Source of the DNA: Comamonadaceae bacterium
Lineage (GTDB): Bacteria > Pseudomonadota > Gammaproteobacteria > Burkholderiales > Burkholderiaceae_C
Length of the DNA: 64,000 nt
Assembly (NCBI GenBank): GCA_947475685.1
Contig: CANJNC010000011.1
Span: 12,361-76,360, forward strand
Reading direction: 5' to 3'
Both the position numbers and the translations under genes were made by a program. The notes under the pieces are model-generated. The model was not told the origin of the DNA. It saw only the letters and a program-made list of their open reading frames with translations, and did no database searches. Shown here piece after piece: positions 3,330 through 32,091 of this stretch. Each line of letters starts with the position of its first letter. The stretch's first letter is position 1.

Positions 3330-3358
3330 TTGTCATTGTTTAGTCATTGAATTGTCAT
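3330..3358 (+). promoter_or_regulatory. Three-unit PhoB-box-like direct repeat
   Basis: TTGTCAT-tgtt-TAGTCAT-tgaa-TTGTCAT with exact 11-bp period; CATAAT (-10-like) at 3356-3361. Confidence 0.65.
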
Positions 3359-6019: not shown

Positions 6020-7492
6020 TTATAAACCGAGTGCTTTAACGATCAATGGAAAAACTTCGATGTTTTCTAATGATCCCTTGAATAAATTGGAATTCATGCC
6101 AATGGCACCCAACCAAACATCTCCACCCCCATGCGTTTCACTCTCTCCTGAGAGTCGAATCGCGGATTCTTGTTGGTAGTTGTCTGCGCCAGTGATGGCG
6201 TCTGTCAATGGCGACATGGCCGCTCTGTCAGAAACTCGGTTAGGTCCATTACCAAAAGCCAATACACTGAAAGTCGCACCATCTGCATCTTTTGCAGGCG
6301 TTGTGGGTGTCAGCCATTGTTTCAAAACGCCTAGGATGCCAGGACTTTCTTTGGTCGTTTTTCCAGTCAATGCAGAGTATCCTTGCATGACCATCGTGTG
6401 ATCGTGATCGGCTGTCACCACAATCAATGTATTCGTCAGGTTGGGATCCGTTTGACGAACTTTGGCGATTGCAGCAGCAATGGCGTTGTCAAAAGCAATC
6501 GTATCTTGCAAGGCGCGTTTGGCATTGGTGGCGTGGAGGGCATGGTCGATTCTTCCGCCTTCAACGACCAAGGTATAGCCTTTGTTCTTTTTTGCCGACA
6601 AGATGTCCATGGCCTTGGTCGTCATCTCTGCCAAACTAGGCTCAACGGCTGGATTTCTGTCCAAGTCATAAGACATGTGGCCACCAGAGAAAGATGCATC
6701 CAATACGCCTTGATCAAACAAGGCAAAAAGTTTTGTCGAGGGATTGATAGCGACTGAGTTTAGACTTGGCAAGTCGTTTGCAAACGCATAGCCTTGGGTT
6801 TTCATCTCGGTGATCAAGTTTCTGCCGTCAGGGCGACCGGCCTTTTCAAGCGCAGAGCCAGTGCCATTGAAGGGGATGAAATATTTGCTGTTGCCACCCA
6901 TCAAGACATCTACGCCGTTACCAAGAGCAGCGTTGAAGCCCGCGCCACCTGGAACGGCTTGTCTGGCGATGTCATACTCAGCATTTCTGTTGCAAATGTG
7001 AGAGAAGGTTGCCGCTGGCGTGGCGTGGGTCAGTCTGGCCGTGGTGACGATACCCGTTCCCATGTTATTGGCTTTTGCCAATTCCAAGAGGGTTTGGACT
7101 GGCTTGCCGTTGGTAGACGCGCAATTGTTCACTGAATTTGAAACACCTGTTGTTGCGTCTTTGCCAGGGCTCACAGAGGTGGTGTCAGAAGACATGGAAA
7201 CCACGTCTGAGTTCATCTTCACACCCGTCATGTAAGCGGACATGGATGCAGCGCTCTCGGTGACTTGAAAATTTTGAGAAAATGTTTTGACGAATGCGGT
7301 GTCGGGTAAGGTGTCCATGGTCAATTGACCATCCTCTCCATAACCGTAAATTCGTGCTGCAGTTTGAACAGTGACGCCCATGCCATCCCCTAAGAAGAAG
7401 ATGACGTTTTTTGGAGGGCTGTCACTTGATGAGCAAGCGCTTAACAAACCAATTGAAACCAAAGATAATAAAACTGATAAATATTTTTTCAT
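6020..7492 (-). CDS. phoA: Alkaline phosphatase, PhoA family (lipoprotein)
   Basis: Lipobox LLSA-C; GDGMG, TESA, THATPA, EGGRIDHALH, TADHDH, ETHG. Confidence 0.95.
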   Translation of the reverse strand: MKKYLSVLLSLVSIGLLSACSSSDSPPKNVIFFLGDGMGVTVQTAARIYGYGEDGQLTMDTLPDTAFVKTFSQNFQVTESAASMSAYMTGVKMNSDVVSMSSDTTSVSPGKDATTGVSNSVNNCASTNGKPVQTLLELAKANNMGTGIVTTARLTHATPAATFSHICNRNAEYDIARQAVPGGAGFNAALGNGVDVLMGGNSKYFIPFNGTGSALEKAGRPDGRNLITEMKTQGYAFANDLPSLNSVAINPSTKLFALFDQGVLDASFSGGHMSYDLDRNPAVEPSLAEMTTKAMDILSAKKNKGYTLVVEGGRIDHALHATNAKRALQDTIAFDNAIAAAIAKVRQTDPNLTNTLIVVTADHDHTMVMQGYSALTGKTTKESPGILGVLKQWLTPTTPAKDADGATFSVLAFGNGPNRVSDRAAMSPLTDAITGADNYQQESAIRLSGESETHGGGDVWLGAIGMNSNLFKGSLENIEVFPLIVKALGL

Positions 7493-7535
7493 GTTCGCCC
7501 TTTAAAATAAACCATCCCAACAATAATTGAAAATG

Positions 7536-7553
7536 ATGTAAGTTCTGTGACAT
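7536..7553 (-). promoter_or_regulatory. PhoB-box-like site for the phoA-phoA unit
   Basis: Minus strand ATGTCAC-agaa-CTTACAT, then a 10-bp spacer and TATTGT (-10-like, 7525-7520). Confidence 0.65.
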
Positions 7554-7585
7554 CGATATGTTTAATAAAAACCAAGGGTCGTTGG

Positions 7586-7603
7586 TTGTCATGAAAATGT
7601 CAT
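7586..7603 (+). promoter_or_regulatory. PhoB-box-like site for ppk2
   Basis: TTGTCAT-gaaa-ATGTCAT, then a 10-bp spacer and TATGCT (7614-7619). Confidence 0.8.
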
Positions 7604-7649
7604 CTGCTCCATTTATGCTAAAAAATTATTTATTATTTAATGACTGACC

Positions 7650-8561
7650 ATGTCCAAGCAGCAAAACCTAGACGCCACACAGATACTGCGCTTAAGAGAC
7701 GATATTATGGATAGCTTGGATGAAGAGCTAGAAAATGAATTTGAGGATGTGGGTTTTGGAAATCCCGAAAACTATTCTTCCAAAGCCATTGAATTTAGGC
7801 GCTTTTATTTTCGTGAATTGATCAAGCTACAAGGCGAATTGGTCAAGCTGCAAGACTGGGTGGTTGCGAACAAGCACAGAATGGTTATTATTTTTGAAGG
7901 CAGAGATGCTGCGGGCAAGGGTGGCGTCATCAAGCGAATTACGCAGCGCTTAAATCCTCGCATATGCAGAGTAGCGGCCCTACCTGCTCCCAATGACCGG
8001 GAAAGAACTCAATGGTACTTTCAGCGCTATGTTTCCCATTTGCCGGCTGCAGGCGAAATCGTCTTATTTGATAGAAGCTGGTACAACCGTGCAGGCGTGG
8101 AAAGAGTCATGGGTTTTTGCTCAGACGAAGAATACGAGGAGTTTTTTAAATCCGCGCCTGAGTTTGAAAAAATGCTAACAAGAAGCGGTATTCAAATCAT
8201 CAAGTATTGGTTCTCTATTACAGATGATGAGCAGTATGCAAGGTTTTTAGGTCGCATCCATGATCCTTTGAAACAGTGGAAACTCAGTCCCATGGATTTA
8301 GAGAGTCGTCGTCGCTGGGAAGATTACACACGAGCGAAAGAGACGATGATTGAAAGAACGCACATCTTGGAAGCACCTTGGTGGGTTGTTCAAGCGGTGG
8401 ACAAGAAAAAAGCCCGACTCAATTGCATCAGTCACTTGTTGTCTCAAGTCAAGTACACGGAAGTCAATCCACCGGAAATTGTCATGCCCGATCGTGTTAG
8501 AAATCCGAACTACATTCGCCACGCCATGCCCCAAGGGATGATCGTGCCAGAGAACTATTGA
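7650..8561 (+). CDS. ppk2: Polyphosphate kinase 2 (single domain)
   Basis: Walker A EGRDAAGKGG, FDRSWYNRAGVERVMGF, WKLSPMD. Confidence 0.96.
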   Translation: MSKQQNLDATQILRLRDDIMDSLDEELENEFEDVGFGNPENYSSKAIEFRRFYFRELIKLQGELVKLQDWVVANKHRMVIIFEGRDAAGKGGVIKRITQRLNPRICRVAALPAPNDRERTQWYFQRYVSHLPAAGEIVLFDRSWYNRAGVERVMGFCSDEEYEEFFKSAPEFEKMLTRSGIQIIKYWFSITDDEQYARFLGRIHDPLKQWKLSPMDLESRRRWEDYTRAKETMIERTHILEAPWWVVQAVDKKKARLNCISHLLSQVKYTEVNPPEIVMPDRVRNPNYIRHAMPQGMIVPENY

Positions 8562-18875: not shown

Positions 18876-20195
18876 TTAAATGAAAAGCAGCACGGCAATC
18901 ATCGCTCCTGATAAACAGGTCGAAAGCGTTCCAATCAGCAGGGACTTCGCGCCCATTTGAACGATCTCCCTTTGCCGATCAGGTGCCATGGAGCCTATTC
19001 CTGCAATGACAATGCCTAGACTGCCAAAGTTGGCAAAACCACATAGCAGATAAGTCATTAAAACTCTTGAGTGCTCACTCATTGCATTGGGATTTAATTG
19101 AGAGAGGTCTAGATAAGCGATGAACTCATTCAAGACCAACTTGGTGCCCATCAGTTGCCCTGCAATTTGCGTGTCCTTCCACTCGATTCCAAGGGTCCAT
19201 GAGAAGGGCTGCATCACCCAGCCGATGACGCGTTGGATGGTTAAAGCAGAGCCGTCAAGGTAAGGTAAAAATTCAAGAATGCTATTGCCAAGGGACACCA
19301 GGGCCACCAAAACAATCAACATGGCAATGACACTTGCCAGCAAACGCATGCCTTGAAAGGTGCCATCACTGATGGCATCCATGGTGCTTTGGTATTTTCT
19401 ATGTTTGTCCGTGCTCTGGATCAACGCCATGATGTATGTTTTCAAGCCATGGTTCTTAAGTTCTTGCGCCTCAGATCCTGAGGACGGGCTTTCTTGTAAA
19501 GGAATTTTTGGAATTGCAACCAGACTCAAGACAATGGCCCCTGGCGCACTGATCAAGGATGCGATGATCAAGTGGGTGACCACGTTGGGGACTGAGCTTT
19601 GTAGAAAGCTTGCATAAATCACCAGCACGGTGCCTGAAATGGTTGACATGCCGGTGCTCATGACAACAAACAATTCGGATCTAGAGAGCCCAGCCAAATA
19701 AGGCCTGATAAGTAGAGGTGCCTCAACGATGCCCACAAAAACGGTTGCAATGCTTGCAAAGGATGTAGCGCCCGATACGTTCAGTATCTTGCCAAGCAAC
19801 CAAGCAAAACAACCGATGATCACGGGTAAAACTCGCCAGTAATAAAGGAGTGCTGACAATGCACTGAATATTAAAATCATCGGCAATGCTTGCAAGCCCA
19901 AGATAAAGGACATGCCAGGAGACTTTTCTTCAAAGGGCAGGGGTCCTCCGCCCAAATATCCAAATACAAGCGACGTGCCTGCTTGGGTGGCTTTTTGAAG
20001 TTGAAGGACAGTTTCGTTCAAGGAACTCAAAAAACTTTGGATGAAGGGGACCTTTAAAAGCAGCACAGCCAATACAAATTGAAACAGCAGTCCTTTGAGC
20101 AAGCTGATGAAGTCAATGTGTGAGCGGTTTTCAGACACGCCAATAGTGATCAGTAAGATGATCACAATACCAATCAAAGATTGATAATTTTCCAT
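18876..20195 (-). CDS. nupC: Concentrative nucleoside transporter (NupC/CNT family)
   Basis: FVGIVEAPLLIRPYL, TISGTVL, KLVLNEFIAY, LCGFANFGSLGI. Confidence 0.93.
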   Translation of the reverse strand: MENYQSLIGIVIILLITIGVSENRSHIDFISLLKGLLFQFVLAVLLLKVPFIQSFLSSLNETVLQLQKATQAGTSLVFGYLGGGPLPFEEKSPGMSFILGLQALPMILIFSALSALLYYWRVLPVIIGCFAWLLGKILNVSGATSFASIATVFVGIVEAPLLIRPYLAGLSRSELFVVMSTGMSTISGTVLVIYASFLQSSVPNVVTHLIIASLISAPGAIVLSLVAIPKIPLQESPSSGSEAQELKNHGLKTYIMALIQSTDKHRKYQSTMDAISDGTFQGMRLLASVIAMLIVLVALVSLGNSILEFLPYLDGSALTIQRVIGWVMQPFSWTLGIEWKDTQIAGQLMGTKLVLNEFIAYLDLSQLNPNAMSEHSRVLMTYLLCGFANFGSLGIVIAGIGSMAPDRQREIVQMGAKSLLIGTLSTCLSGAMIAVLLFI

Positions 20196-20236
20196 GTGCA
20201 GGCCTTCGCTTAAAACGATTGAAATTCACCCGTCGC

Positions 20237-21280
20237 TCAAGCGCCCAACCGAATTAAATCATCGTGGGTCAAATGCTCTGTTTGTTGTCCTATCCAACCA
20301 AGCAGTCTAGATTTCCAGTTTAAAAAAGAGGCGGGCGCTTTGACAGCAGTATACTCAAGTCGGCTTTGAGCGCCACGTTTTCGCTTAAAGTCACCTGCAC
20401 CAGAGCTGTAATTGAGCAAAAGTTGGTGCTCTAAAGTGTACTGATAGATGCTAGCAAATAACAGTCGATAGATCCCTGGCTTTGTCTCGCTTTCAAAATA
20501 ACCCAAAGCTGGAACAGTTAAAGTATCCCCAATTTGGTGCAGTAAAGCAAAGGCTACTATCTCCCCTTCTTCATTGATCAAATTCAAACAAGACATCCAT
20601 TTGGTATTGATCATGTCTTTAAAGAATGCGGGTGTGTAATTGGCATTGTAGACACTGTGTTTTTTGATGTAAATGAGTTCATACAAAGACTGAAGGCGCT
20701 CAGCTTGTAGGTCATCAATCAAGTCCATCGATGAGACTTTGAGTTTGGATTTCTTTAAGGCACTTAAGTCTCTTGTGAGATGTGAAGGTTTTACTTTCAT
20801 GCCCATTCGAAGATCGAATTCATAAACTACGCGTGCTGGCAAAGCCACAAAACCTATTTTTTTAAGATCGAGAATCAGTTGCTGGTGTTTATACATCAGC
20901 AAATTTCGAACAAATATAAAAGAACTTAAATGTTGATGTTTAAAAGATTGACACGTCTGAAATAAAGCAGTGTCGTCAGCTGTACGCCATACATTGGTTG
21001 AGATTGGAAAGTTTCCAACAATTGCGTTGTCACTCATGCCAATCGAGTTGGCCAAGTGCGAGAAGATCTTAAGGAGTGCTTTTAAAAAGCAATGGCCTTG
21101 TAGTTCATCTGCTGCGTAGTCAAACCACGCAATTTTTGGCGAAGTGATGTAGCAAGATGCAAAGGGCTTTTGTTTGTGAGTGATGGTGATCGGCAAGGCG
21201 CCAGGCTCCCAGTGGAGTTCTGCGCCCGCATTCACCATCCACTCTTGGAGCGAATGAGCCCAGGGGGCTATTTTCTTCAA
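20237..21280 (-). CDS. Uncharacterised FemAB-like tandem-GNAT protein (347 aa)
   Basis: LYELIYIKKHSVYNANYTPAFF, GEIVAFALL, LGY…GIYRLL and NYSSGAGDFKRKRGA resemble FemAB/DUF482-type GNAT motifs; TTG start overlaps the btaA stop (TTGA). Fold inferred, not searched. Confidence 0.7.
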   Translation of the reverse strand: MKKIAPWAHSLQEWMVNAGAELHWEPGALPITITHKQKPFASCYITSPKIAWFDYAADELQGHCFLKALLKIFSHLANSIGMSDNAIVGNFPISTNVWRTADDTALFQTCQSFKHQHLSSFIFVRNLLMYKHQQLILDLKKIGFVALPARVVYEFDLRMGMKVKPSHLTRDLSALKKSKLKVSSMDLIDDLQAERLQSLYELIYIKKHSVYNANYTPAFFKDMINTKWMSCLNLINEEGEIVAFALLHQIGDTLTVPALGYFESETKPGIYRLLFASIYQYTLEHQLLLNYSSGAGDFKRKRGAQSRLEYTAVKAPASFLNWKSRLLGWIGQQTEHLTHDDLIRLGA

Positions 21281-22518
21281 TGGTTGAATCTATACAAATG
21301 CAACGCGCCATAGATTCCTGAGCGATCTTGCGGACCCAAGGAGTCAGAGATTTGATGGTCTCTTGTCCACTGATCGGCCAGGGGTCCTGTCAAACAAGCA
21401 TCAACAGGCGATTGAGAGCCAGCCGTTCTGAAGATGACCCTTGCACCTGGTTTGGCCGCTTGGGTGATGGCTGTCCATACGGCAGTCAATTCATGAGGTG
21501 TCATCCAATCTTGAGCATCTAAAAGGTTCACAATATCAACTGATTGGGGGCCTAGGTTGATCAGCTTATCTCTGATGTTGTTGTGCTCAATTGAAATTTT
21601 GTGAACGCAGTCACGTAAAAAAGCATAATTTTCTTTAACCAAATATGGCGGAAGCGCACTTTGACCCGACTCATCGTATTTTCTTGCATAGGCTTGCCAA
21701 GCAAAATAGTTGTCCTTGATTGGTACAACAGTGGCCAATTGTCTAGCTCTTTGTTTTAAGATTTCTGACATTTGTTCTGGCTTGTTGTCACACAAAGCCA
21801 AGTGCTGACTTGGAGGAATACCAAGGTTGTACAAAGCGTAAGGACTGCTGCAAATTTTAGTAACCAGTCTAGAGTCGAAAATCTTAGCGACTTTTTGGTC
21901 AAACCAAATCTTTTGATCTTCAACAGTTTTTTGCTCTAAAAGTTCAGACAATTTCACGCCATGTAATTTTGCCCCCATGTGGATAATTCCAATGATCTGA
22001 CCGAGCAGACCGTATTTGTAAAAACCTTTGGCAAACATTTGAATCCTCTTGGATCCAAACGGTCCGCTTTCCCAGTACGCTCGGCTTTCTTGATCCAATT
22101 GAGGTGAAATGATCGCATTGTAGATTCTGACATTGCTCGTTGATTTTGCAATGCCAAAAAATCTAAAGAAGTCTTCGTGGTACTCCAGTGTTTTGAGCGC
22201 TGCAATTTTCAAGTGATTCAAAGCAATGTGAGCATGATTGAGATCCACAACGGAAATTTTTGCGGGATTTGCCATCAAATAGGACAAGGCGTTGCACCCG
22301 CCAGAGGCAATGGTGAGCATGTGATCGGTGCTTTTGATCTGTAAGGCATTCATGTCCACCATAGGGTCTTCCCAAATTTGTGTATAAACCAAGCGATCGA
22401 ACCACATTGCAAAAATTTTATCTTTCAGCGTTGTTTTGGATTTGTGTCCAAAAACTGCGTTGTTCAACAGTACTTTTGATTTCTTTAGGCTGAGTGTTGG
22501 ACTTGAAGTTGTATTCAT
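21277..22518 (-). CDS. btaA: BtaA: SAM:diacylglycerol 3-amino-3-carboxypropyltransferase (DUF3419)
   Basis: LVYTQIWEDP, TIASGGCNALSYL, NYFAWQAYAR, LLDAQDWM, ARVIFRTA, DRSGIYGALHLY; 413 aa, full length relative to alphaproteobacterial BtaA. Confidence 0.88.
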   Translation of the reverse strand: MNTTSSPTLSLKKSKVLLNNAVFGHKSKTTLKDKIFAMWFDRLVYTQIWEDPMVDMNALQIKSTDHMLTIASGGCNALSYLMANPAKISVVDLNHAHIALNHLKIAALKTLEYHEDFFRFFGIAKSTSNVRIYNAIISPQLDQESRAYWESGPFGSKRIQMFAKGFYKYGLLGQIIGIIHMGAKLHGVKLSELLEQKTVEDQKIWFDQKVAKIFDSRLVTKICSSPYALYNLGIPPSQHLALCDNKPEQMSEILKQRARQLATVVPIKDNYFAWQAYARKYDESGQSALPPYLVKENYAFLRDCVHKISIEHNNIRDKLINLGPQSVDIVNLLDAQDWMTPHELTAVWTAITQAAKPGARVIFRTAGSQSPVDACLTGPLADQWTRDHQISDSLGPQDRSGIYGALHLYRFNH

Positions 22519-22594
22519 GAGTGAAAAAAATCCCTATGGATGAAGATATGTATCCAATTGTGGATCACTAATATTTCATTTGAATGTTACTTTT

Positions 22595-22612
22595 ATTACT
22601 TTTTAGTGACTT
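22595..22612 (-). promoter_or_regulatory. Weak PhoB-box-like site upstream of btaA
   Basis: Minus strand AAGTCAC-taaa-AAGTAAT; no clean -10 at 10 bp. Confidence 0.35.
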
Positions 22613-22696
22613 AACAATTTTTATCAACTTCAACATTCAAGGCTTGGACAGATCGTTGCGATCGTTTTTTTAAAATTTAAGCACATAAGATTCAAA

Positions 22697-22714
22697 ATGT
22701 CACAAACCTTTAAT
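22697..22714 (+). promoter_or_regulatory. PhoB-box-like site for the TPAT-NPP operon
   Basis: ATGTCAC-aaac-CTTTAAT, then a 10-bp spacer and TAATAT (22725-22730). Confidence 0.7.
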
Positions 22715-22742
22715 GTGCAAAAGGTAATATATTTGCAAAATA

Positions 22743-23654
22743 ATGGACACAAAAATGTCAAATTCAGTTGTAAAAAAAAGCATCTTTATTTTCTGGGCAA
22801 TGACTGTACTTTTAGCAACGCCTGGTTGTGCAATCAACACCTTTGTAGTCGATCAAGTGGCAAAGAACCTTGTATCAGAGGATGACCATGAACAAGATCT
22901 ATTTTTAGCTCGGGATGCCAGTCCTTTTTATTTAAAGTTGACAGAAAATTTATTGATCCGTTCGCCCGCAAATTTAAACTTGGCACAAGCCGTTTGCAGT
23001 GGTTTTACACAGTATGCATATACATTTATTGCATTTGAAGCAGAAAAAATTGAAGGCAGTGACTACAAGCGTGCAGAGGTCTTAAGAGAGAGGGCCTCCA
23101 AGATGTATGCGCGTGCATTCAATCATGGGATGAAAGCATTGGATTTGAAGTTCAGTGGTTTTGGTGCAAAGCTTAAAGCCTCAGGCAATATGGACCCTAA
23201 AGTTATACCATCAACAGATGTAGGACTTCTTTATTGGACGGCGGCTTCTTTGGGCGGTTGGATATCAACCGCCAAGGACATGCCGGACTTGGTTGCAGAT
23301 TTCCCCATTGCCCTTCGTTTAGCGCATTTGGCGTGGCAAATAGATCCGTCCTATTCTCAAGGTTCTTTGGCAAGCCTCATGGGTAACTTTGAGTGGGCCA
23401 ACCCGAACGGATCAAAGCCATTGGCAACACAATATTTCGATTGGGCAATTCAATATTCAAAAGATCAAAATGCAGGTCCCTTTGTCTCCAAAGCAGAAAA
23501 GGTTGCTGTGGCAATGAAAGACAGGCGAATGTTTGAAAAACTTCTCAATCAAGCAAAAGAGATCGCTCAAAAATACCCAAATTTACAAAATGAGGCCATG
23601 CGTTTGCGTGCACAATGGTTACTTGAAAACGAAGACGAGCTTTTTGAAAGTTGA
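22743..23654 (+). CDS. TRAP-associated TPR lipoprotein (TatT component of a TPAT system)
   Basis: Lipoprotein-like signal (…LATPG-C), AVCSGFTQYAYTF, LLYWTAASLGGWIS helical TPR-like repeats; immediately upstream of DctP. Start may be ATG 22755. Confidence 0.85.
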   Translation: MDTKMSNSVVKKSIFIFWAMTVLLATPGCAINTFVVDQVAKNLVSEDDHEQDLFLARDASPFYLKLTENLLIRSPANLNLAQAVCSGFTQYAYTFIAFEAEKIEGSDYKRAEVLRERASKMYARAFNHGMKALDLKFSGFGAKLKASGNMDPKVIPSTDVGLLYWTAASLGGWISTAKDMPDLVADFPIALRLAHLAWQIDPSYSQGSLASLMGNFEWANPNGSKPLATQYFDWAIQYSKDQNAGPFVSKAEKVAVAMKDRRMFEKLLNQAKEIAQKYPNLQNEAMRLRAQWLLENEDELFES

Positions 23655-24673
23655 AGATGAACTTAAACCGATTGGTCCGAATTTTTTCATGTTTGGTTTT
23701 TCTTGCTTTTGCAAGTTCAAGCTTTGCAGCGGACAAGCCCTTGAGGATGGGGACACTGGCACCCAAGAACTCTCTTTATTACAGACAACTCATTGAAGTC
23801 GCTGAGGCGTGGAAAGGTGCCGCAGGGGGTAATTCAAAGTACACCGTGTACGCAGACGGTAGCCAAGGAGGAGAGACAGAGCTTGCCAGAAGGATGCGAA
23901 TTGGGCAACTGCAAGGCGCGCTCTTGTCAGTGGTGGGTTTGAAGGAAATTGAACCCTCTATCAGTGCATTGCAGTCCATGCCCTTGCTTTTTAAAAGCTG
24001 GGAAGAGCTTGATTTCGTTCGGGAAAAGATGCGTCCTGGCATGGAGAAGAAATTTCTTGAAAAGGGATTTGTTGTCTTGGCTTGGGGAGATGCAGGCTGG
24101 GTCAGGTTCTTTTCAAAGGAGCCGGCTTTTAAGCCAGATGATTATAAAAAGATGAAGTTTTTTTCCTGGGGAGGGGAGCCCGAACAGCAAGAGATCATGA
24201 AGAGCTTGGGCTATACGCCCGTTCCTTTGGAGACGACAGATATTTTACCGTCTATACAAACGGGCATGATTTCTGTGGTTCCCTCTACACCGTATTTTGC
24301 AATGGCCAGTCAAATCTACAACACAGCCAACAACATGCTTGAGATCAATTGGGCACCGGTCGTTGGAGCTTTGGTGATCACTAAAAAAGCATGGGATGAG
24401 ATGAGTCCTTCAACCCAAGAAGCGGTTCGATCGGCTGGCGACAAGGCGGGAGATCAAATCAGGATCAAAGCCCGCCTAGAAGTTGAAGAGGCGGTAGAGG
24501 CCATGAAAAAGAGAGGTTTGATTGTGAACAAACCCTCGCCAGAGCAAATGAAAGAGTGGAACACCCTTGCTGCAAACTTGTACCCCAGGATTAGGGGAGC
24601 AATGGTCCCGGCAGAAACGTTTGATGAAGTTTTCAAACATTTAAATACATACAGAGCTGGCAAGCAAAAGTGA
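23651..24673 (+). CDS. dctP: TRAP solute-binding protein (DctP/TatP type)
   Basis: LRMGTLAPKNS, RMRIGQLQGALL, PVPLETTDILPSIQTGMI; 4-bp overlap with TatT. Confidence 0.92.
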   Translation: MKMNLNRLVRIFSCLVFLAFASSSFAADKPLRMGTLAPKNSLYYRQLIEVAEAWKGAAGGNSKYTVYADGSQGGETELARRMRIGQLQGALLSVVGLKEIEPSISALQSMPLLFKSWEELDFVREKMRPGMEKKFLEKGFVVLAWGDAGWVRFFSKEPAFKPDDYKKMKFFSWGGEPEQQEIMKSLGYTPVPLETTDILPSIQTGMISVVPSTPYFAMASQIYNTANNMLEINWAPVVGALVITKKAWDEMSPSTQEAVRSAGDKAGDQIRIKARLEVEEAVEAMKKRGLIVNKPSPEQMKEWNTLAANLYPRIRGAMVPAETFDEVFKHLNTYRAGKQK

Positions 24674-26451
24674 AATTGAATCAAATCAAACTGGATGAAA
24701 TTATTTCATCCCTAGCCTTGATTTTAATGGCAATCATTCCAGTGATTGAAATCCTTGCCCGTCCAGTACTTGGCAAAGGTATTGAAAACGCTCCAATTTT
24801 GGTTCAACACTTTGGGCTTGTGATGTCCATGTTTGGGGCCATTGCAGCTTATCGTTTTGGACATCTTTCAAGTATTGGCGTTATATTCAACTCGTTTAAG
24901 ATTCCTGCACGAATCTTATCGAGTTTAATCTGTGGCTTATTGTGCTGGGCGTGTTGGCATTTTGTGAGCACTGAAAGATCGGCCAATCAAATGTTGGCTT
25001 ATTCAATACCTTTGTGGATTTTACAATTGGTCATGCCAATTGGATTCTTGCTCTTGAGTTGGCAAATCGTCTCTGAGGGTTTGAATTTATTTTTATCTAA
25101 AGCCGTTGCAATTTTAAGCGTGAGCGTCATTAGTTATTTGCTTTTTCAGTTTTTTGAATCAAATGCAACGTCGATATGGCCCATGCTGTTGATTTTGGTG
25201 GTTATGTTTTTAGGCGGTGCACCCATATTTTCCATCATTGCCGCTTTGGCTTTGGGATTGTTTTTGCAAGATGGTTTGCCACTGTCCTCTGTGGCTTTGT
25301 CGCATTATCAAATCACGGTCAACCCATCGTTGCCTGCGTTGCCCTTATTTACGCTGGCTGGGTTGGTTTTTGCATCGACCGGGTCGGCCAAGCGTTTAGG
25401 GCTGTTATTCATGGCTGTGTTTGGCACGGGTGTCAGAGGGACCGTGTTTGCAACAACCGTTTTATGCTCATTTTTCACGGCCTTTACTGGAGGCAGTGGG
25501 GTGACCATTTTGGCGCTTGGAGGCTTGTTGCTCCAACTGTTAAGTGACACTGGATATTCGAAAAAAAGAGGGATTAGTCTTGTGACCAGTGCGAGTGCCC
25601 TTGGTGTTTTATTGGCACCTTCTGTACCACTGATCATGTATGCGATTATTGCTCGCGTACCGATCAACGATATGTTTTTGGCAGGTCTTGTGCCAGCATT
25701 GGTCATGGTCTTGTCATTGTTGGTATTTGGTGGATATCTAAAGAAGGAAAATCAATTTGAAGCAAAAGAGCATGTCCATGCTTTTTCATGGTTGAGATTA
25801 AAGCAGGCGAGTTGGGATGCAAAATGGGAAATTTTGACGCCATTTGTTGCTATAGGTTCCCTGGTCAGTGGGTTTGCAACGCCTACTGAAAGCGCTGCGA
25901 TTACAGCCGTTTATGCCATCGTCACTCAAATGATCTTTAACCGAGAATTGAGTTTGGAGCAATTTAAACACTCATTGCTTAAGTGCACACAAATTATTGG
26001 GGGTGTCATGTTGGTCCTTGGCATGGCATTGGGCATGACCAATTACTTAATTGATGCGGGAATTCCTGACCTGGCAATCCAATGGGTTCAGGGCATCACG
26101 AGCAATAGATATGTTTTCTTGCTTGCGCTTAATGTATTTTTATTTTTTGCTGGTGCGCTGATGGAAATTTACGCAGCCATCGTTGTATTGGTGCCCTTGT
26201 TGTTGCCCTTGGCGCTGTCTTATGATATTCATCCGATTCATTTTGGCATTATCTTTTTGGCCAATATGGAGATGGGATTTTTATGTCCACCTGCGGGCAT
26301 GAATATATATTTCGCATCCGCTGTATTTAACCAACCTTTAAAGGATGTGGCCCTCTCCATTTGGCCAGCATTGATTGCTATTTTTATCGGAACTGTTATT
26401 ATTTCTTGGCTTCCGTTACTGAGCACTGGCTTGCCTCAGTTTTTCAAATGA
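24670..26451 (+). CDS. dctM: Fused TRAP small+large permease (DctQM)
   Basis: 593-aa polytopic protein; ALPLFTLAG, AFTGGSGVT, LLAPSVPLIMYAI, ATPTESAA, HPIHFGIIFLANME…CPP. Confidence 0.92.
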   Translation: MKLNQIKLDEIISSLALILMAIIPVIEILARPVLGKGIENAPILVQHFGLVMSMFGAIAAYRFGHLSSIGVIFNSFKIPARILSSLICGLLCWACWHFVSTERSANQMLAYSIPLWILQLVMPIGFLLLSWQIVSEGLNLFLSKAVAILSVSVISYLLFQFFESNATSIWPMLLILVVMFLGGAPIFSIIAALALGLFLQDGLPLSSVALSHYQITVNPSLPALPLFTLAGLVFASTGSAKRLGLLFMAVFGTGVRGTVFATTVLCSFFTAFTGGSGVTILALGGLLLQLLSDTGYSKKRGISLVTSASALGVLLAPSVPLIMYAIIARVPINDMFLAGLVPALVMVLSLLVFGGYLKKENQFEAKEHVHAFSWLRLKQASWDAKWEILTPFVAIGSLVSGFATPTESAAITAVYAIVTQMIFNRELSLEQFKHSLLKCTQIIGGVMLVLGMALGMTNYLIDAGIPDLAIQWVQGITSNRYVFLLALNVFLFFAGALMEIYAAIVVLVPLLLPLALSYDIHPIHFGIIFLANMEMGFLCPPAGMNIYFASAVFNQPLKDVALSIWPALIAIFIGTVIISWLPLLSTGLPQFFK

Positions 26452-26476
26452 TCTCACTCTACCTTAGGCATTTAGA

Positions 26477-27709
26477 TTGATTAGTCGGCGCTCACTTCAA
26501 CACTTGTTGATTATTTGTTTAGTCAACTGCATGTGCACTTTGGCTTTAAATAGCTTTGCACAAAGTAAAACTCCTCCAAAACCGCTGGTGCTTCTCATTG
26601 GAATTGATGGTTTTAAACCAAGTTACTTGACACTGGGTGTGACACCTCGATTAAAGTCCTTGGCGCAATCTGGCGTTCTTGCAAAGGGTTCTATTTCTGC
26701 ATTTCCATCTTTGACGTTTCCAAACTTTGTGAGTTTGGTGACGGGTCTAACGCCTGATCACCATGGAATTGTGAACAACACCATGACCGATCCAGCAACC
26801 GATCAACTCTTTACTTTGAGTTCAAGAGAGGCCGTTGAGAATCCCTTTTGGTGGACGAAAACCACTCCCATTTGGACCAACTTGAGACAACAAGGCGGTA
26901 TAGCCTCTGCTATGTTTTGGCCTGGTTCTGAGGTTGAAATCAACGGCAGTCGCCCCAACGACTGGGTGCGATATGAGCATGGCATGTCACACGAAAGAAG
27001 GCTTGAATATTTGGTGTCTTGGTTGTCCAGAGGAGAGACTTTAAGACCCAATCTTGCAACACTTTATCTCTCTGATGTTGACTCTGCTGGGCATGAGTTT
27101 GGGCCAGACAGTGAACAAGTTAGGGATGCAGTTGCAAAGGTCGATCAGACTATTGGAGCATTAATCGATGCAATTTCAAACTTGGGATTAAAGGAGAGAA
27201 CGACCTTTGTACTTGTTTCTGACCATGGTATGGCCAGTACGCCTGCGGCCAAGTCCATCGATGTCAGTCAATTACTAAAAGATTTTCCAAAAGCCAAATG
27301 GGAGTGGCAAGGTGCAACTTCTGCTGTCAGACTCAATGGTGAAAATGGATTGCAAGTTCTAAATGTACTGTCTCAGCAATCCAATCTTGATTGTTATGAG
27401 AAAGGTAAGTTGCCGCAAAGCTTTAAGTTTGGTACCCACCCAAGAATTCCAGAGATCGTTTGCGTGTCCAAAATGGGTTACACCGTTACAGCCAACCCTT
27501 ACCGCAAGGGGCCGCTTGGTCAACATGGGTTTGACCCTCTGTTGACTGAAATGCATGGACTCTTTTTGGCATCAGGCCACCGGATCAAACCTGGCGAATT
27601 GGGCTTGATCGAGAACATCGAGGTTTACCCACTCTTATGCCAACTGCTCGGTATTCTTGAGCAAAAAAACGATTCCAAGCACCTCTTAAAAGACATCGTT
27701 TTGAATTAA
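26477..27709 (+). CDS. Nucleotide pyrophosphatase/phosphodiesterase (NPP, alkaline phosphatase superfamily), exported
   Basis: GIDG, PSLTFPN (Thr nucleophile), DVDSAGH, SDHGM, GQHGFD; N-terminal signal with SRRSL. Confidence 0.92.
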   Translation: MISRRSLQHLLIICLVNCMCTLALNSFAQSKTPPKPLVLLIGIDGFKPSYLTLGVTPRLKSLAQSGVLAKGSISAFPSLTFPNFVSLVTGLTPDHHGIVNNTMTDPATDQLFTLSSREAVENPFWWTKTTPIWTNLRQQGGIASAMFWPGSEVEINGSRPNDWVRYEHGMSHERRLEYLVSWLSRGETLRPNLATLYLSDVDSAGHEFGPDSEQVRDAVAKVDQTIGALIDAISNLGLKERTTFVLVSDHGMASTPAAKSIDVSQLLKDFPKAKWEWQGATSAVRLNGENGLQVLNVLSQQSNLDCYEKGKLPQSFKFGTHPRIPEIVCVSKMGYTVTANPYRKGPLGQHGFDPLLTEMHGLFLASGHRIKPGELGLIENIEVYPLLCQLLGILEQKNDSKHLLKDIVLN

Positions 27710-27730
27710 TCCTTGTTTAGTTTATCAGTT

Positions 27731-27757
27731 AAAAAGGCACCAAATGAGTGCCTTTTT
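27731..27757 (+). terminator. Terminator after NPP
   Basis: AAAAAGGCAC-caaatga-GTGCCTTTTT. Confidence 0.8.
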
Positions 27758-27865
27758 CTATTTGCGAGAAAAATTATTTAATTTGATATTAAAGTTTTAT
27801 TTATTTTTGTGGTTTTTGTGTTTTTGACTTTAAGAATGAATTATTTTAACTAGGGTAATCCATGG

Positions 27866-27883
27866 ATGTCACAAGAATGTAAC
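27866..27883 (+). promoter_or_regulatory. PhoB-box-like site for exbD-tonB-TBDR-exbB
   Basis: ATGTCAC-aaga-ATGTAAC, then a 10-bp spacer and CACAAT (27894-27899). Confidence 0.8.
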
Positions 27884-27905
27884 TTAGTTTTCGCACAATG
27901 ACTTG

Positions 27906-28355
27906 ATGCGCAGATTCCCTTACCAAGCTAGGAAAAAGTCACGAATTGAAATCATTCCAATGATTGATGTGATGATGTTTTTACTGGTTTTCTTTGTGCT
28001 CATTAGCATCAATGTGATTCCCGCTTTGGGCATCAAGATGAATTTGCCCAGCTCCAATTCTGTCAAAGAGGAGCATCCACCCATTCGTGTCATCTTAAGC
28101 ATATCAGCTGATGGGTCTTATCAGCTTGATGGGCAAAGCTTTGCTTCGCTTGAGAGCTTAAAGTCGGCCTTATTGGGTCTTAAACATCAAAACGAAGCCA
28201 AGTCCAGTCAAAACGCCTTGATCAATTCAAGTCCCCGCCTCGCAGTCATTATCAATGGAGATGAGCAGTCTCCACTACAGCGTTTGGTGGATGTCATGGA
28301 CATGCTCAAGTCAAGTGGCATTGATTCAATGACCATTGCGTCAAAGAAAAAATAA
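27906..28355 (+). CDS. exbD: ExbD/TolR biopolymer transport protein
   Basis: IEIIPMIDVMMFLLVFFVL (TM Asp), VIINGD…LVDVMDML. Confidence 0.93.
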   Translation: MRRFPYQARKKSRIEIIPMIDVMMFLLVFFVLISINVIPALGIKMNLPSSNSVKEEHPPIRVILSISADGSYQLDGQSFASLESLKSALLGLKHQNEAKSSQNALINSSPRLAVIINGDEQSPLQRLVDVMDMLKSSGIDSMTIASKKK

Positions 28356-28360
28356 AAGAT

Positions 28361-29062
28361 ATGAATGCGGCGCTTCAATGGACTTATGAAAAAAGAGACC
28401 CCATCTCTTTTGTCAGCGCATTTCTTTTGGGATTGTTGGTTTTGTTGCTGATTCAAGTATCTGCAATCAATTTTTCAAAAAACGCTGATGTTGAAATGAC
28501 GGCTTTCATTGAATCGCCTCCTGTGCCTGAAATCATCAAACCACTCGAACCCATTAAGAAGGTGATCGAGAAACAAGAAATCCAAAAGAGAGCGGAGCCT
28601 GTGATGCCAAAGCAGGTCACCTCTCCTTTTGCAACCGAAGCGCCCAAAGAAGCCAAGCACGTCGAGACCCCAGTGCCCCTGGAAAAACCTCAAGTCCTTC
28701 AAGCACCTCAACACATCACGCCTCCTGCGCCTGTTCCATCTGCTCAACCTGTACCTTCAACTGCAAGTATTTACGAAGCTCAGTTGAGATCTTATTTGGA
28801 GAAGATCAAACGCTATCCCACCATTCGAGAGGCGCGACTCACCAGACCACAGGGTGCTGTTCGTGTTTGGTTGGAGATTTCTAGAAACGGGCAGGTCCTA
28901 GGCGTGGGTGTCATGACGTCATCGGGCTCGAATTTATTGGATGGAGAGGCTTTGAAAACCTTGAAAACCGGTTCGTATCCTGCTTTTCCTGAGGATGCGT
29001 ATGTTGGTGAAAATGCCCATAAGTTTTCTGCAACCCTTAATTACACCCTTGAGCCTCAATGA
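28361..29062 (+). CDS. tonB: TonB energy transducer
   Basis: N-terminal TM, Pro/Glu/Lys-rich linker, C-terminal RYP…PQGAVRVWLEISRNG…SSGSNLLD. Confidence 0.92.
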   Translation: MNAALQWTYEKRDPISFVSAFLLGLLVLLLIQVSAINFSKNADVEMTAFIESPPVPEIIKPLEPIKKVIEKQEIQKRAEPVMPKQVTSPFATEAPKEAKHVETPVPLEKPQVLQAPQHITPPAPVPSAQPVPSTASIYEAQLRSYLEKIKRYPTIREARLTRPQGAVRVWLEISRNGQVLGVGVMTSSGSNLLDGEALKTLKTGSYPAFPEDAYVGENAHKFSATLNYTLEPQ

Positions 29063-29130
29063 ATTGAGGGTTTGGTTGCAACAGTTTTGTTTTTTGAGAT
29101 TTTAAAGTTCAATTATTTTTAGGAGAAAAA

Positions 29131-31524
29131 ATGAAGAAGTCGAATCGTGTTTTCCAACTGTCCTTGTTGAGCATTGCTCTTTTGAGCACGGGATATTTTT
29201 CATCCGCCATGGCGCAAAAGGCGCCTACCGATGTGGGTACCGTCAAAATCACGGGTGAGGGTGATGCATTGGGCAATGGGCTTTTGATTGATGAAGACGG
29301 TGTAAAAACAAAAAGCACTGTTACAAAAGCTTCGATTGACAAAGAGCGTCCAACCGCCAATGCATATCAAGTTTTGAACTTGATGCCCAGTGTCAATGCA
29401 TCGAGCTACGATGCCACAGGACTTTTTGGCGGGAATTTAAGAGTGAGAGGTTTTAACAGTGATCAAATGGGTTTCACCATCAATGGCGCTCCTGTCAATG
29501 ACTCTGGTAACTTTGCCATCTATCCACAAGAGTATTCTGATATTGAGAACATGTGCGAAGTCTTCATTACACAAGGATCTGTGGACACCGATGCACCCCA
29601 TGTAGGCGCCTCAGGCGGTAATGTTGGCATGGTGAGTTGTTCACCCAAGGACAAATTTGGCGGTAAGTTTTCCGGCTCATTGGGCGATTTGAACTTCAAG
29701 CGTTCCTTTTTGCGACTTGATACCGGTTTAATAGGCAAGGAGCATCCCTTTAAAGCCTTTATCTCCTACTCGGCTGCTTCAGTTGATAAATTCAAAGGGC
29801 TTGGTGGCGCCAATCGCCATCACACAGATGTTGGTTTAGATTGGAAGCTGACCGATAACACAACATTGACATCCAACTTACTTTACAACTTTGCTGTAAA
29901 TAATAATTTTTTGACTCTGACCAAAGCGGAGTTTGCTCAAAATCAAAACCTTGATTTCAGCTCCACGGTACCTCAGCACCTGGCATCGGGCTCGGAGAAC
30001 ACCACTGCCAATTTTGGTACCAGCAGCGCTGGTGCAACGCCAAGAACCAAGTTGGCTTACTACAACTACTCTTTGAATCCATTTGAGAACTATCTCTTCA
30101 CCTCACGTTTGCAAACTCGAGTTGATGATAAATTGACCCTGAGTGCAGAGCCCTATTTTTGGTACGGTTATGGCACTGGTGGTACTCAGCAGACAACGCT
30201 TGCCGAATCAAGCACTGGATTTCGCGCAGGGATTGCAGATATCAACAAAAATGGCAATACAACCGACACAGTCGGTATCTACAGAGGAAGTGTGACCGAG
30301 ACGAACCGCCCAGGCATTACATTCAAAGCCAATTACGACCTAGGCGATCACAAGATTTTGGCCGGATTGTGGATGGAGCAAGCTCGTCATCGTCAAACTC
30401 AGCCTGCGACCACCATGGACAACAGTGGAACTGTTTCTGACCTTTGGCTAAGAAATAATTTATTGAAATACAACGATGGTAGTTTGTATGAGGGTAGAAA
30501 TTACAAAACCGTATCCACTGCTTACTCCTTGTTCTTACAAGACACGATTTCCATGGGTCGCTTGGACGTCGTTCCTGGTGTGAGATTTTCTTCCATCAAG
30601 CGTGACTTTACCAACTACGCATCAAGTGGATCTGGCTTAGGAGCAGATTATTCTACTGACAGAACATTCACCAAACCTTTGATGTCTTTAGGTGCGCGTT
30701 ACAAAATCGACGACTCATTGCAAGCTTACGCAAACGTTTCACAAAATTTGCGTGCCCCGTCTAATTTTGTCTTGGCAGGCTGGGTCACTGGCGGAACGTA
30801 TGCCAATGGCGCATTGACTGGATATAAACTTGTTGCTAACAACTCCATTCAAGCTGAGACATCGGTTGCGACTGAGGCTGGTCTGCGTATCACTGAGGGA
30901 GATGTCAAAGGATCAGTTTCATTGTTCCAAGTCAACTTCAAGAATCGAATTGCTCAAGGATTCAATCCTGACACGGCCACTTACACTGACTACAACGTTG
31001 GGGACTCGACCATCAAGGGTTTAGAGCTGCAAATGGGCACCAAGCCCGTCAACGGTTGGAGTGTGTTTGGTTCTGCAACGTACACGCAAAGCACAATCTC
31101 TAACAACTTTCCCGCAACGGCAACAAGCACCTTGCCCACTGCTGGCGCCACGTTCCCTGACACACCTCAGTGGATGTATGCTGCCTCTGTGCAATACGCT
31201 TCTGGCCCTTATCTCGCGTCCTTGTCTGGTAAGTACACGGGCAAGCGTTACACCACACTGGTCAACGACGAGTTCTTAGATGCCTATACGGTGTTTGACT
31301 TGAATGCGGGCTATCGCTTTGACAATGGTGCTTTCTTCAAGAGCCCAACAGTGCGTTTGAATGTGAGTAATTTGTTCAACAAGAACTATTTGATTGCCAA
31401 TTCTGGAAGTGGCTCAAACATCACCACCTCCACAACGGCAGCCAGTTCACAAGGCGGTGGTTTTCCAAGCTACTATGTTGGAGCGCCCAGGTTTGTCAGC
31501 ATGTCTTTTAGCTCAGACTTCTAA
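29131..31524 (+). CDS. TonB-dependent outer membrane receptor (797 aa)
   Basis: Signal peptide, TonB-box-like DVGTVKITG, plug NLRVRGF…DGFTING-like segment, beta-barrel periodicity, terminal Phe (SSDF). Confidence 0.94.
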   Translation: MKKSNRVFQLSLLSIALLSTGYFSSAMAQKAPTDVGTVKITGEGDALGNGLLIDEDGVKTKSTVTKASIDKERPTANAYQVLNLMPSVNASSYDATGLFGGNLRVRGFNSDQMGFTINGAPVNDSGNFAIYPQEYSDIENMCEVFITQGSVDTDAPHVGASGGNVGMVSCSPKDKFGGKFSGSLGDLNFKRSFLRLDTGLIGKEHPFKAFISYSAASVDKFKGLGGANRHHTDVGLDWKLTDNTTLTSNLLYNFAVNNNFLTLTKAEFAQNQNLDFSSTVPQHLASGSENTTANFGTSSAGATPRTKLAYYNYSLNPFENYLFTSRLQTRVDDKLTLSAEPYFWYGYGTGGTQQTTLAESSTGFRAGIADINKNGNTTDTVGIYRGSVTETNRPGITFKANYDLGDHKILAGLWMEQARHRQTQPATTMDNSGTVSDLWLRNNLLKYNDGSLYEGRNYKTVSTAYSLFLQDTISMGRLDVVPGVRFSSIKRDFTNYASSGSGLGADYSTDRTFTKPLMSLGARYKIDDSLQAYANVSQNLRAPSNFVLAGWVTGGTYANGALTGYKLVANNSIQAETSVATEAGLRITEGDVKGSVSLFQVNFKNRIAQGFNPDTATYTDYNVGDSTIKGLELQMGTKPVNGWSVFGSATYTQSTISNNFPATATSTLPTAGATFPDTPQWMYAASVQYASGPYLASLSGKYTGKRYTTLVNDEFLDAYTVFDLNAGYRFDNGAFFKSPTVRLNVSNLFNKNYLIANSGSGSNITTSTTAASSQGGGFPSYYVGAPRFVSMSFSSDF

Positions 31525-31530
31525 AAGTTC

Positions 31531-32091
31531 ATGACTGAGTTTTTACACCAAGCCTCATTTGGGCTGATGATCATCTCTGCCATCATTGCAACCGTGGTGA
31601 GTGTGGAGAGGATCATCTTCTCCAGTATGAATCTCAAGCGTGCAAAACTTTTGACAGCCAGCATCGACACACAAAGAGGCTCTATGGGGTCTTTGTTGGG
31701 CCAAGATGTGGTGTCTGAAATGGTGCAAAAACTCTTGGACGATAAGGCTCAAAACTTTGCACCTGCTGTTCAACAAGACAGGGCTGACGCCGCATTTATT
31801 CACGCAAAAGATGAATTGGGCGATAGACTTTGGATGCTTGACACGATTGTGACCGCAGCGCCATTGATGGGGCTCTTGGGGACCATTTTTGGCATTGTGG
31901 ATACCTTCTTGGCACTTTCCAAGTCCGGTATGTCTGACCCCGCGGGGGTCAGTGCAGGCATTGGAACGGCTCTTTACGCCACAGCTCTGGGGATTTCTAT
32001 TGCTTTGATAGGCCTTTTTGCCTTTAACTTTTTGAGTGACCGCAATGAGAGAATAGGTGAGCATTTGAAGATGTTGATTTTGCGTCTTTAA
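31531..32091 (+). CDS. exbB: ExbB/MotA/TolQ proton channel
   Basis: TIVTAAPLMGLLGTIFGI, GIGTALYATALGI. Confidence 0.92.
   Translation: MTEFLHQASFGLMIISAIIATVVSVERIIFSSMNLKRAKLLTASIDTQRGSMGSLLGQDVVSEMVQKLLDDKAQNFAPAVQQDRADAAFIHAKDELGDRLWMLDTIVTAAPLMGLLGTIFGIVDTFLALSKSGMSDPAGVSAGIGTALYATALGISIALIGLFAFNFLSDRNERIGEHLKMLILRL

Follow-up and report, generated by a model that had tools for sequence, protein, structure and literature searches.

A TPAT transporter operon with a predicted PhoB-type promoter among phosphorus-free-lipid genes of Burkholderiales, and its possible role in membrane-lipid renovation

What does a TPAT transporter import when it is placed behind a Pho-type promoter, and does the phosphodiesterase encoded directly after it belong to the same pathway? 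The locus that raises this question lies in a window of 64,000 nucleotides, the whole stretch of DNA that was analysed, from a Comamonadaceae bacterium. Replacement of phospholipids by phosphorus-free lipids is a major route by which bacteria survive phosphorus scarcity. To our knowledge, the known sets of lipid-renovation genes (plcP, agt, olsBA, btaAB) code for enzymes and include no transporter of lipids from the periplasm to the cytoplasm.

A Pho-box promoter (22697-22730) and an intrinsic terminator (27731-27757) enclose four closely spaced genes, all on the + strand. tatT (22755-23654) codes for a TPR-like lipoprotein, the T component, and its open reading frame can also be read from 22743. 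It is followed by tatP (23651-24673), coding for a DctP-type periplasmic binding protein, by dctQM (24670-26451), in which the small and large TRAP permeases are fused, and by npp (26477-27709), coding for a putative exported nucleotide pyrophosphatase/phosphodiesterase (NPP) with the signal SFA/QS. Overlaps of 4 nt are found at tatT/tatP (GTTGA) and tatP/dctQM (GTGA), and 25 nt separate the end of dctQM from npp. ATG 22755 is most likely the true start of tatT, rather than ATG 22743, because the latter position is TTG in the related loci L006 and L007 and is followed there by an in-frame TAA. For tatP the alternative starts are TTG 23651 and ATG 23657, the second of which leaves a gap of 2 nt after tatT. 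The TTG start of npp aligns with ATG in L006 and L007. Inspection of the dctQM-npp junction for an internal promoter or terminator revealed none that was evident. The terminator on the + strand 3' of npp, a GGCAC..GTGCC hairpin with a T run (fold -15.2 kcal/mol, z -3.06), is kept in L006 and L007. The ORF layout and the hairpin after npp bear out the earlier observation of a four-gene unit with a single terminator.

The tatT Pho box (ATGTCACAAACCTTTAAT, 22697-22714, + strand) has two 7-mers, ATGTCAC-AAAC-CTTTAAT, as direct repeats with an 11-bp period, and the -10 hexamer TAATAT (22725-22730, + strand) stands 10 bp 3' of it. The box is kept in L006 and L007 amid flanks that have diverged. In most related loci it takes the form TGTCAY-N6-TTCAY, and the 10-bp spacing to a TAnnnT hexamer recurs across them. 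In the bacterium's own genome the box is near-identical to that of phoA2 (ATGTCACAGAACTTACAT), and boxes of this type are also present at pstS, ppx, ppk2 and phoD. A strict promoter pattern, [TA]GTCA[CT]N6[TG]T[CA]A[CT]N9-11TAnnnT, was composed after the tatT boxes had been seen, which makes its agreement with tatT in part circular and leaves only two parts of the test independent: the genome-wide specificity (six matches on both strands of the 3.77-Mb genome, five of them intergenic and upstream of pstS, ppx, ppk2, phoD and tatT) and the cross-locus enrichment (34 of 61 distinct tatT upstream regions against 4 of 842 upstream regions of other genes in the same loci). The pattern is present also in L008, L020 and L021.

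It could be argued that the likeness to a Pho box is fortuitous and that the operon is free of phosphate regulation, for the second half-site (TTTAAT) is weak and two scans gave it little weight. The scan with the E. coli consensus (CTGTCATnnnnCTGTCAT), run at a threshold of 11 or more matches out of 14, did not detect the tatT site because it is too strict for second halves of the form TTCAY or TTAAT, and an organism-specific comparison was used instead. A PWM made from the nine strongest boxes gave tatT only 9 bits, its second half-site being TTTAAT and not TGTCAT, and this PWM was dropped as over-fitted to consensus-selected sites. A chance resemblance is nevertheless very unlikely, since the full architecture is specific across the genome, the box persists in dozens of loci that have diverged and whose flanks are unrelated, phoA2 carries nearly the same box and Pho-regulon genes surround the operon. 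Judged from the sequence, the tatT Pho box is beyond chance and forms a predicted PhoB-type promoter, as had been claimed, which is specific genome-wide and phylogenetically conserved. The operon would thus be induced at low Pi.

Pho-box units also flank the operon. On the - strand, a Pho-box-like site (AAGTCACTAAAAAGTAAT, 22595-22612), in a block kept in L006 and L007, precedes the divergent btaA-like operon, and L008 has an analogous CCGTCAC-GCCT-TTTTAAT before btaA (read by eye). On the + strand, the Pho box of an exbD-tonB-TBDR-exbB unit (ATGTCACAAGAATGTAAC, 27866-27883) is wholly kept in L006 and L007 and marks the 3' boundary of the tatT-npp operon. The window also codes for two PhoA enzymes, PPK2 and NupC.

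TatT matches PF16811 over profile positions 2-263 of 263 (E 3e-46) and Tp0956 of Treponema pallidum (PDB 3U64) with E 7e-15. The AlphaFold model of TatT (pLDDT 92) has 3U64, 4DI3 and 8G52 as its top Foldseek matches. The modelled fold is that of the Tp0956 lipoprotein (TM 0.76/0.84) and of Enhygromyxa salina TatT, a member of the same superfamily (8G52; Foldseek E 6e-6, TM 0.65/0.69), whereas sequence identity is only 22-23% to the former and 15% to the latter. TatT is predicted to be a membrane-anchored lipoprotein; its lipobox LATPG/C is replaced by LAISG/C in L006 and TLSG/C in L008, and C25 is invariant in 36 sequences. TatP matches PF03480 and NF037995 (E 3e-78), its best PDB match being Tp0957, TatP(T) (E 3e-22), and the next-best 4P1E and 4PFR. 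DctQM contains PF04290 and PF06808 and scores above the cut-off of TIGR00786. The order tatT-tatP-dctQM is repeated in about 60 related loci. With a PF16811 TatT, a DctP-type TatP and a fused DctQM in one unit, the identity of the system as a TPAT is supported. It shares with the T. pallidum TPAT (Tp0956/Tp0957/Tp0958) the four-part make-up and the order T, P, fused QM. Unlike Tp0957, TatP here has a Sec signal (AFA/AD) and no lipobox, and its R152 is Ser in Tp0957 in the pairwise alignment. Further differences from the T. pallidum system are the Pho box, the extra NPP gene, the location in a P-starvation and lipid-renovation island and the Burkholderiales genome.

The arginine of TRAP binding proteins limits most systems to carboxylate-containing substrates (PMC4646407), and R152 of TatP either coincides with the canonical Arg147 or comes directly after it, the pairwise alignments differing by one. 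In Tp0957 the equivalent of this arginine is Ala, according to Fischer et al. (PMC4646407). The TatT pore and the TatP cleft are hydrophobic (PMC5812351). PMC11713862 states, in its account of Zhai et al. 2023, that long-chain fatty acids are bound by TatT proteins, and also that the E. salina structure 8G52 is palmitate-bound; E. salina TatT is the source of the sole experimentally shown class of TatT ligand (PMC11713862). Neither phosphate regulation nor a lipid-renovation context is described for E. salina TatT in PMC5812351 or PMC11713862. The expectation that TPATs handle hydrophobic ligands has therefore become firmer with the binding of fatty acids by TatT proteins.

The neighbourhood of the transporter was compared across its orthogroup, defined by TatP at least 70% identical. 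Its members are frequent in genomes of Burkholderiales and in metagenomes, and 80 loci were retrieved from metagenomes. After clustering at 90% TatT identity, 31 clusters offered 12 kb or more of context and were counted; neighbour genes were delimited by crude ORF rules and took their names from BLAST against a small reference set. On these terms a lipid-renovation gene was found in 22 of the 31 clusters and a P-scavenging gene in 17, while 8 had neither and TonB/TBDR genes were nearby in 4. The TPAT occurs in at least four gene arrangements, beside plcP, olsB/olsA, an agt-like GT4 gene (with ugd and an MFS gene) or a btaA-like gene; ppk2, pst-phoBR and dgkA are other neighbours. Representatives were checked with Pfam as PF13444 OlsB-type, Metallophos PlcP-type, PlsC-type acyltransferase and GT4 proteins, and further as UDP-glucose dehydrogenase, DAG kinase and PPK2. 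The suggested link to the divergent btaA-like unit also holds, as L008 and L050, with TatT roughly 50% identical, again have the btaA-like gene and the 347-aa gene beside the TPAT. In the bacterium's own genome (G000) the olsB-plcP-GT4 set is located elsewhere, beside pst and ppx, which indicates that the TPAT moved and landed again beside a phosphorus-free-lipid gene, the btaA-like one. Distant TPAT paralogues of the same order, whose TatT is 31-40% identical, lack both TGTCAY and a Pho box upstream, and neither Pho nor lipid genes adjoin them; the link is thus specific to one orthogroup and not a general property of TPATs. Going by gene neighbourhood, the orthogroup has a conserved place in phosphate-starvation islands, among phosphorus-free-lipid genes. 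These islands resemble the PhoB-regulated lipid-renovation clusters described by Sebastian et al. 2016 (PMC4796936), which are Pho-box-marked and combine PlcP with phosphorus-free-lipid synthesis, plcP being found with agt, olsB/olsA or btaAB. The islands here also contain ppk2, dgkA and pst-phoBR. In the six plcP contexts of PMC4796936 no TRAP or TatT transporter is reported, and a text search of the paper for TRAP returned 'ion-trap' only.

This linkage bears on what the TPAT carries. Small organic acids are the cargo of most TRAP systems (PMC11713862), and with R152 near the canonical arginine position the TPAT might import a small hydrophilic carboxylate that is not a lipid, being merely parked in the Pho island. 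That is quite unlikely, because the TatT has the predicted fold of Tp0956 and Es_TatT, the TatP is nearest to Tp0957 and the linkage to lipid genes outlasts at least four rearrangements. A second candidate cargo is a phosphorus-containing amphiphile, a lysophospholipid or acylated organophosphate, which would enter through the adjacent Pho-regulated TBDR and from which PlcP-type enzymes would free phosphorus inside. In two different arrangements a TBDR/TonB module lies next to the TPAT, and in L090 and L102 it runs straight into tatT; this adjacency could be a sign of some other kind of exogenous substrate. The TBDR module of the window has its own Pho box, plcP is often a neighbour, and import of a P source would be a more direct account of Pho control. 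Set against this are the presence of TonB/TBDR genes near only 4 of the 31 clusters, the fatty acids that are the TatT ligands shown so far (PMC11713862), and the restriction of most TRAP systems to carboxylate-containing substrates by the arginine (PMC4646407). We regard import of such an amphiphile as rather improbable.

The remaining question is whether NPP acts on the same substrate. It matches PF01663 (E 3e-80) as a full-length domain with the Thr nucleophile and the two-metal site residues, and it resembles over its full length the single-domain bacterial NPP of Xanthomonas axonopodis (2GSN, E 8e-80). In the alignment with 2GSN, with residue numbers derived from the chain offset of that structure, the equivalents of the catalytic and metal-site residues D54, T90, N111, D210, H214, D257, H258 and H363 are kept, as are both aromatics F91 and Y174, which in Xac NPP form the slot for nucleotide-type substrates. 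The X. axonopodis enzyme differs from the present one in that npp is here the last gene of a Pho-box transporter operon.

The original prediction had joined NPP and the transporter in one substrate chain, in which NPP cleaves a periplasmic phosphodiester such as a lyso- or glycerophospholipid, the TPAT imports the organic or lipidic remainder and DAG may be passed to BtaA. Predicted co-transcription of npp with the TPAT across a 25-nt gap up to a single terminator, putative export signals on both proteins, and the lipid-acting NPP-superfamily members ENPP2, ENPP6 and ENPP7 among the PDB matches all fit such a chain. The comparison across loci does not fit it. NPP adjoins the TPAT solely in the window's own genus (the window, L006, L007 and L029), which amounts to 2 of the 31 non-redundant clusters that have 12 kb or more of context, and in other lineages the transporter loci show no phosphodiesterase gene in one transcription unit with the transporter. 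The genes conserved beside the transporter are those of lipid renovation and not phosphodiesterases. Moreover, NPP keeps Thr90, Phe91 and Tyr174, unlike lipid-type NPP, and its nearest relatives are the nucleotide-specific Xanthomonas enzymes; BtaA requires DAG, and TRAP systems are not known as DAG carriers. A single chain is therefore unlikely, and the interpretation first given to the locus is only partly supported. Since the nucleotide-stacking residues of the Xanthomonas enzyme are kept, NPP is probably a separate nucleotide-scavenging enzyme with PhoA and NupC as partners, and most simply a nucleotide-scavenging passenger on the TPAT operon. The exported enzyme would yield NMPs for the two PhoA enzymes, with Pst taking up the Pi that these release and the neighbouring NupC the nucleosides, and it would share its promoter with the TPAT in this genus only.

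With npp set apart as a separate arm, we hold with moderate confidence that this is a Pho-regulated TPAT importing fatty acids or lipid fragments for membrane-lipid renovation. We infer its ligand and physiological role as follows. From the PhoB-type promoter, in which the Pho box would stand for the -35 element 10 bp before the -10, one transcript tatT-tatP-dctQM-npp would be made, with a predicted start near 22737 and its end at the hairpin 27731-27757. At low phosphate TatT would capture a periplasmic hydrophobic carboxylate, either a long-chain fatty acid or some comparable piece of lipid, coming from phospholipids of the cell itself or of foreign origin. TatT could hand the cargo over to TatP, DctQM could import it, and the acyl chains might be recycled while betaine, ornithine or glyco-lipids replace phospholipids. 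A point against import of fatty acids is that its benefit to a P-starved cell is not obvious. More tentatively, and with some doubt, the TPAT orthogroup might be a dedicated PhoB-controlled lipid-salvage route, which during phosphate starvation returns acyl chains or lyso-lipid fragments through the inner membrane after their removal from phospholipids of the outer membrane or of exogenous origin. If this is true, their phosphorus could be mined and their fatty acids could go into new betaine, ornithine and glyco-lipids, and the route would supply a missing transport step of bacterial lipid renovation.

Searches of the literature turned up no description of a TPAT or TatT tied to P starvation, nor of its link to lipid renovation, and the tie of TatT and TPAT to fatty acids dates from 2023 only. 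A TPAT with a conserved Pho-box promoter, placed within lipid-renovation islands in dozens of lineages, offers a concrete and testable candidate both for the purpose of these transporters and for the movement of acyl chains during lipid renovation. As a separate observation, most of the related contigs appear, judging by name, to come from lake samples.

The window belongs to a 3.77-Mb genome of 47.8% GC (C11:12361-76360), and among public genomes it comes closest to uncultured Burkholderiales/Betaproteobacteria MAGs. Four open reading frames lie on the + strand between 22743 and 27709. They encode, in order, TatT (PF16811, E 3e-46), the DctP-type binding protein TatP (PF03480; NF037995, E 3e-78), a fused DctQ-DctM permease (TIGR00786, exceeding the cut-off) and an NPP, i.e. 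a nucleotide pyrophosphatase/phosphodiesterase (PF01663, E 3e-80). The families of all four proteins are already known. Of solved structures, TatT and TatP are most like Tp0956 and Tp0957, the TPAT pair of Treponema pallidum, and NPP is most like Xanthomonas 2GSN. The AlphaFold model of TatT (pLDDT 92) superposes on Tp0956 with TM 0.76/0.84 and with TM 0.65/0.69 on 8G52, the Enhygromyxa TatT, described as palmitate-bound in PMC11713862. A lipobox was predicted in TatT and Sec signals in TatP and NPP. Apart from the Arg-clamp of the binding protein, every membership feature that sequence or fold can address was found; alignments put R152 of TatP, the candidate carboxylate-clamp residue, either at the canonical Arg position or one residue past it. 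The tatT start is probably better placed at ATG 22755 than at 22743, because the codon at 22743 is not conserved and a stop follows in the related loci L006 and L007. tatT, tatP and dctQM overlap by 4 nt (2 nt apart if an alternative tatP start is used), npp follows after 25 nt, and the unit ends at 27731-27757, where a conserved hairpin is followed by a T run (-15.2 kcal/mol, z -3.06), so that the proposed anatomy of four + strand genes with one terminator was borne out.

The site ATGTCAC-AAAC-CTTTAAT (22697-22714) precedes tatT, followed after 10 bp by TAATAT. Both strands of the whole genome were scanned with the pattern [TA]GTCA[CT]N6[TG]T[CA]A[CT]N9-11TAnnnT, which gave six full matches, five of them intergenic, upstream of phoD, ppx, pstS, ppk2 and tatT. 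The pattern was composed after tatT-type boxes had been seen and therefore its tatT match is not independent; the independent evidence is that core Pho genes are its only other intergenic matches. Phylogenetic footprinting showed that L006 and L007 keep the box and the -10 amid a diverged spacer. In L008, where TatT identity is 51% and a corA gene is inserted upstream, tatT is preceded by CTGTCAC-TGAA-TCTTCAC, 10 bp and TAGAGT. The full pattern was present in 34 of 61 distinct tatT upstream regions but in 4 of the 842 regions upstream of other genes in these genome and metagenome loci, and TGTCAY was absent upstream of same-order TPAT paralogues (31-40% TatT identity). Genome-wide specificity and conservation across related loci thus uphold the Pho-type promoter of the original prediction, and Pho control of the tatT operon is very likely.

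The genome's own Pho regulon was located first and further boxes were then picked by an ad hoc half-site score. The promoter of the pstSCAB-phoU-phoBR cluster on contig C10 carries TAGTCATATGATTGTCAC, and the divergent ppx has a box of three half-sites. Two further genes, then olsB-plcP-GT4 (minus strand), complete this core P-stress cluster (C10:28656-42426). The half-site score placed boxes upstream of ppk2 (7586, + strand; TTGTCATGAAAATGTCAT), exbD (27866, + strand), a PhoD-like gene on contig C4, recognised by eye from its translation, and a gene for 476 aa on contig C1. The gene phoA2 (6020-7492, - strand) has a box (ATGTCACAGAACTTACAT, 10 bp, TATTGT) that is nearly the same as that of tatT and stands back-to-back with the ppk2 box in one 157-bp spacer (7485-7655). 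At 3329-3358 (+ strand), a low-GC spacer contains three consecutive half-sites at 11-bp spacing, TTGTCAT TGTT TAGTCAT TGAA TTGTCAT. Downstream of these there is no convincing gene, just ORFs of 24 to 58 aa before a convergent 239-aa gene (3752-4471). An orphan Pho promoter could drive a small RNA or peptide from here.

Metagenomes scanned with an alignment of TatP gave 80 loci at TatP identity of at least 70%, several with lake-type record names. Crude rules served to call the neighbouring ORFs; names were given by BLAST to a reference set from this analysis, and Pfam was used to check representatives. At least four arrangements were seen. In A, pstSCAB-phoU-phoBR and after it corA, dgkA and ppk2 (leftward) are followed by rightward tatT-tatP-dctQM, a leftward olsA-like gene, then rightward olsB-like, plcP-like, GT4, 127-aa, UDP-glucose dehydrogenase and MFS genes and a leftward GT4. 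B is tatT-tatP-dctQM-MFS-GT4 in a single direction. C is a 5'-nucleotidase-like gene and exbD-tonB-TBDR-exbB-tatT-tatP-dctQM, then convergent plcP and olsB. D (the window, L006, L007 and L029) has leftward nupC, 347-aa and btaA-like genes, then rightward tatT-tatP-dctQM-npp and exbD-tonB-TBDR-exbB. Among the 31 clusters at 90% TatT identity with at least 12 kb of context, 22 have a neighbouring gene for lipid renovation (exchange of phospholipids for phosphorus-free lipids), 17 a P-scavenging gene, four TonB/TBDR genes, four a btaA-like gene and two NPP. Therefore the lasting association, as gene order indicates, is of the transporter with the Pho regulon and lipid renovation, not with NPP. 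In the window's genome olsB-plcP-GT4 is on a different contig, adjoining pst and ppx; its single TPAT has moved, but once more lies beside a P-free-lipid gene.

The coupling of NPP and transporter in one substrate chain was the weakest part of the original prediction, given this rarity and the nucleotide-type residues of the enzyme. Aligned to 2GSN, NPP keeps the nucleophilic Thr and the metal-binding residues, as well as Phe91 and Tyr174, which hold the nucleotide base between them in the Xanthomonas enzyme. The lipid-acting ENPP2, ENPP6 and ENPP7 are far more distant matches. Because the nucleotide-slot residues are kept and genes for two PhoA enzymes, an inorganic pyrophosphatase, PPK2 and a nucleoside transporter of NupC type lie in the window, nucleotide scavenging would be a coherent and simpler role. 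NPP would convert NTPs, NAD or oligonucleotides to NMPs, and PhoA would split these into Pi and nucleoside, to be taken up by Pst and NupC respectively.

Published work shows binding of long-chain fatty acids by TatT from T. pallidum and from E. salina (PMC11713862). The pore of TatT and the cleft of TatP are both hydrophobic, and the ligand is passed from TatT to TatP (PMC5812351). On these grounds we propose that the TPAT is induced through Pho control and would import fatty acids or lipid fragments like them, either for lipid renovation or to salvage the acyl chains of phospholipids. Adjacency to TBDR genes in arrangements C and D hints that the substrate comes from outside rather than from the cell's own envelope. 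In the literature searched, nothing was found that links TPAT/TatT systems to phosphate starvation or to lipid renovation of the PlcP type; the sole related remark of the TatT authors (PMC11713862) concerns membrane remodelling by marine carriers under nutrient limitation.

The TonB unit of the window, exbD-tonB-TBDR-exbB (27866-32091, + strand), lies behind a near-consensus Pho box (ATGTCACAAGAATGTAAC, 10 bp, CACAAT) that is fully kept in L006 and L007. Its first gene, exbD, may be leaderless, since the ATG sits at the expected transcription start. In another lineage (L090:4958-12873 and L102), such a unit, preceded by the 5'-nucleotidase-like gene, continues straight into tatT-tatP-dctQM, which suggests an uptake route from outer membrane to cytoplasm. 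On the other side of the operon (20237-22518, - strand), the btaA-like gene (DUF3419) overlaps that for the 347-aa protein, whose similarity to GNAT, FemAB and LPG-synthase-C is no more than faint (E 0.03-0.15). In L008 and L050, where btaA-like occurs together with olsA, olsB and plcP, both genes of the pair are kept (48-67% identity). No methyltransferase of BtaB type turned up in the island. GC over btaA-TPAT-NPP (20001-28000) is 0.42-0.44 as against 0.47-0.53 over most of the remaining window, which would fit horizontal movement of an island that lies between ilvC and psd. In one clade (L064:5955-12672, L069, L078, L094 and L107), genes for an MFS transporter and an agt-like GT4 glycosyltransferase come after the TPAT in the same orientation, and all of these may form one operon uniting the transporter pair with glycolipid synthesis.
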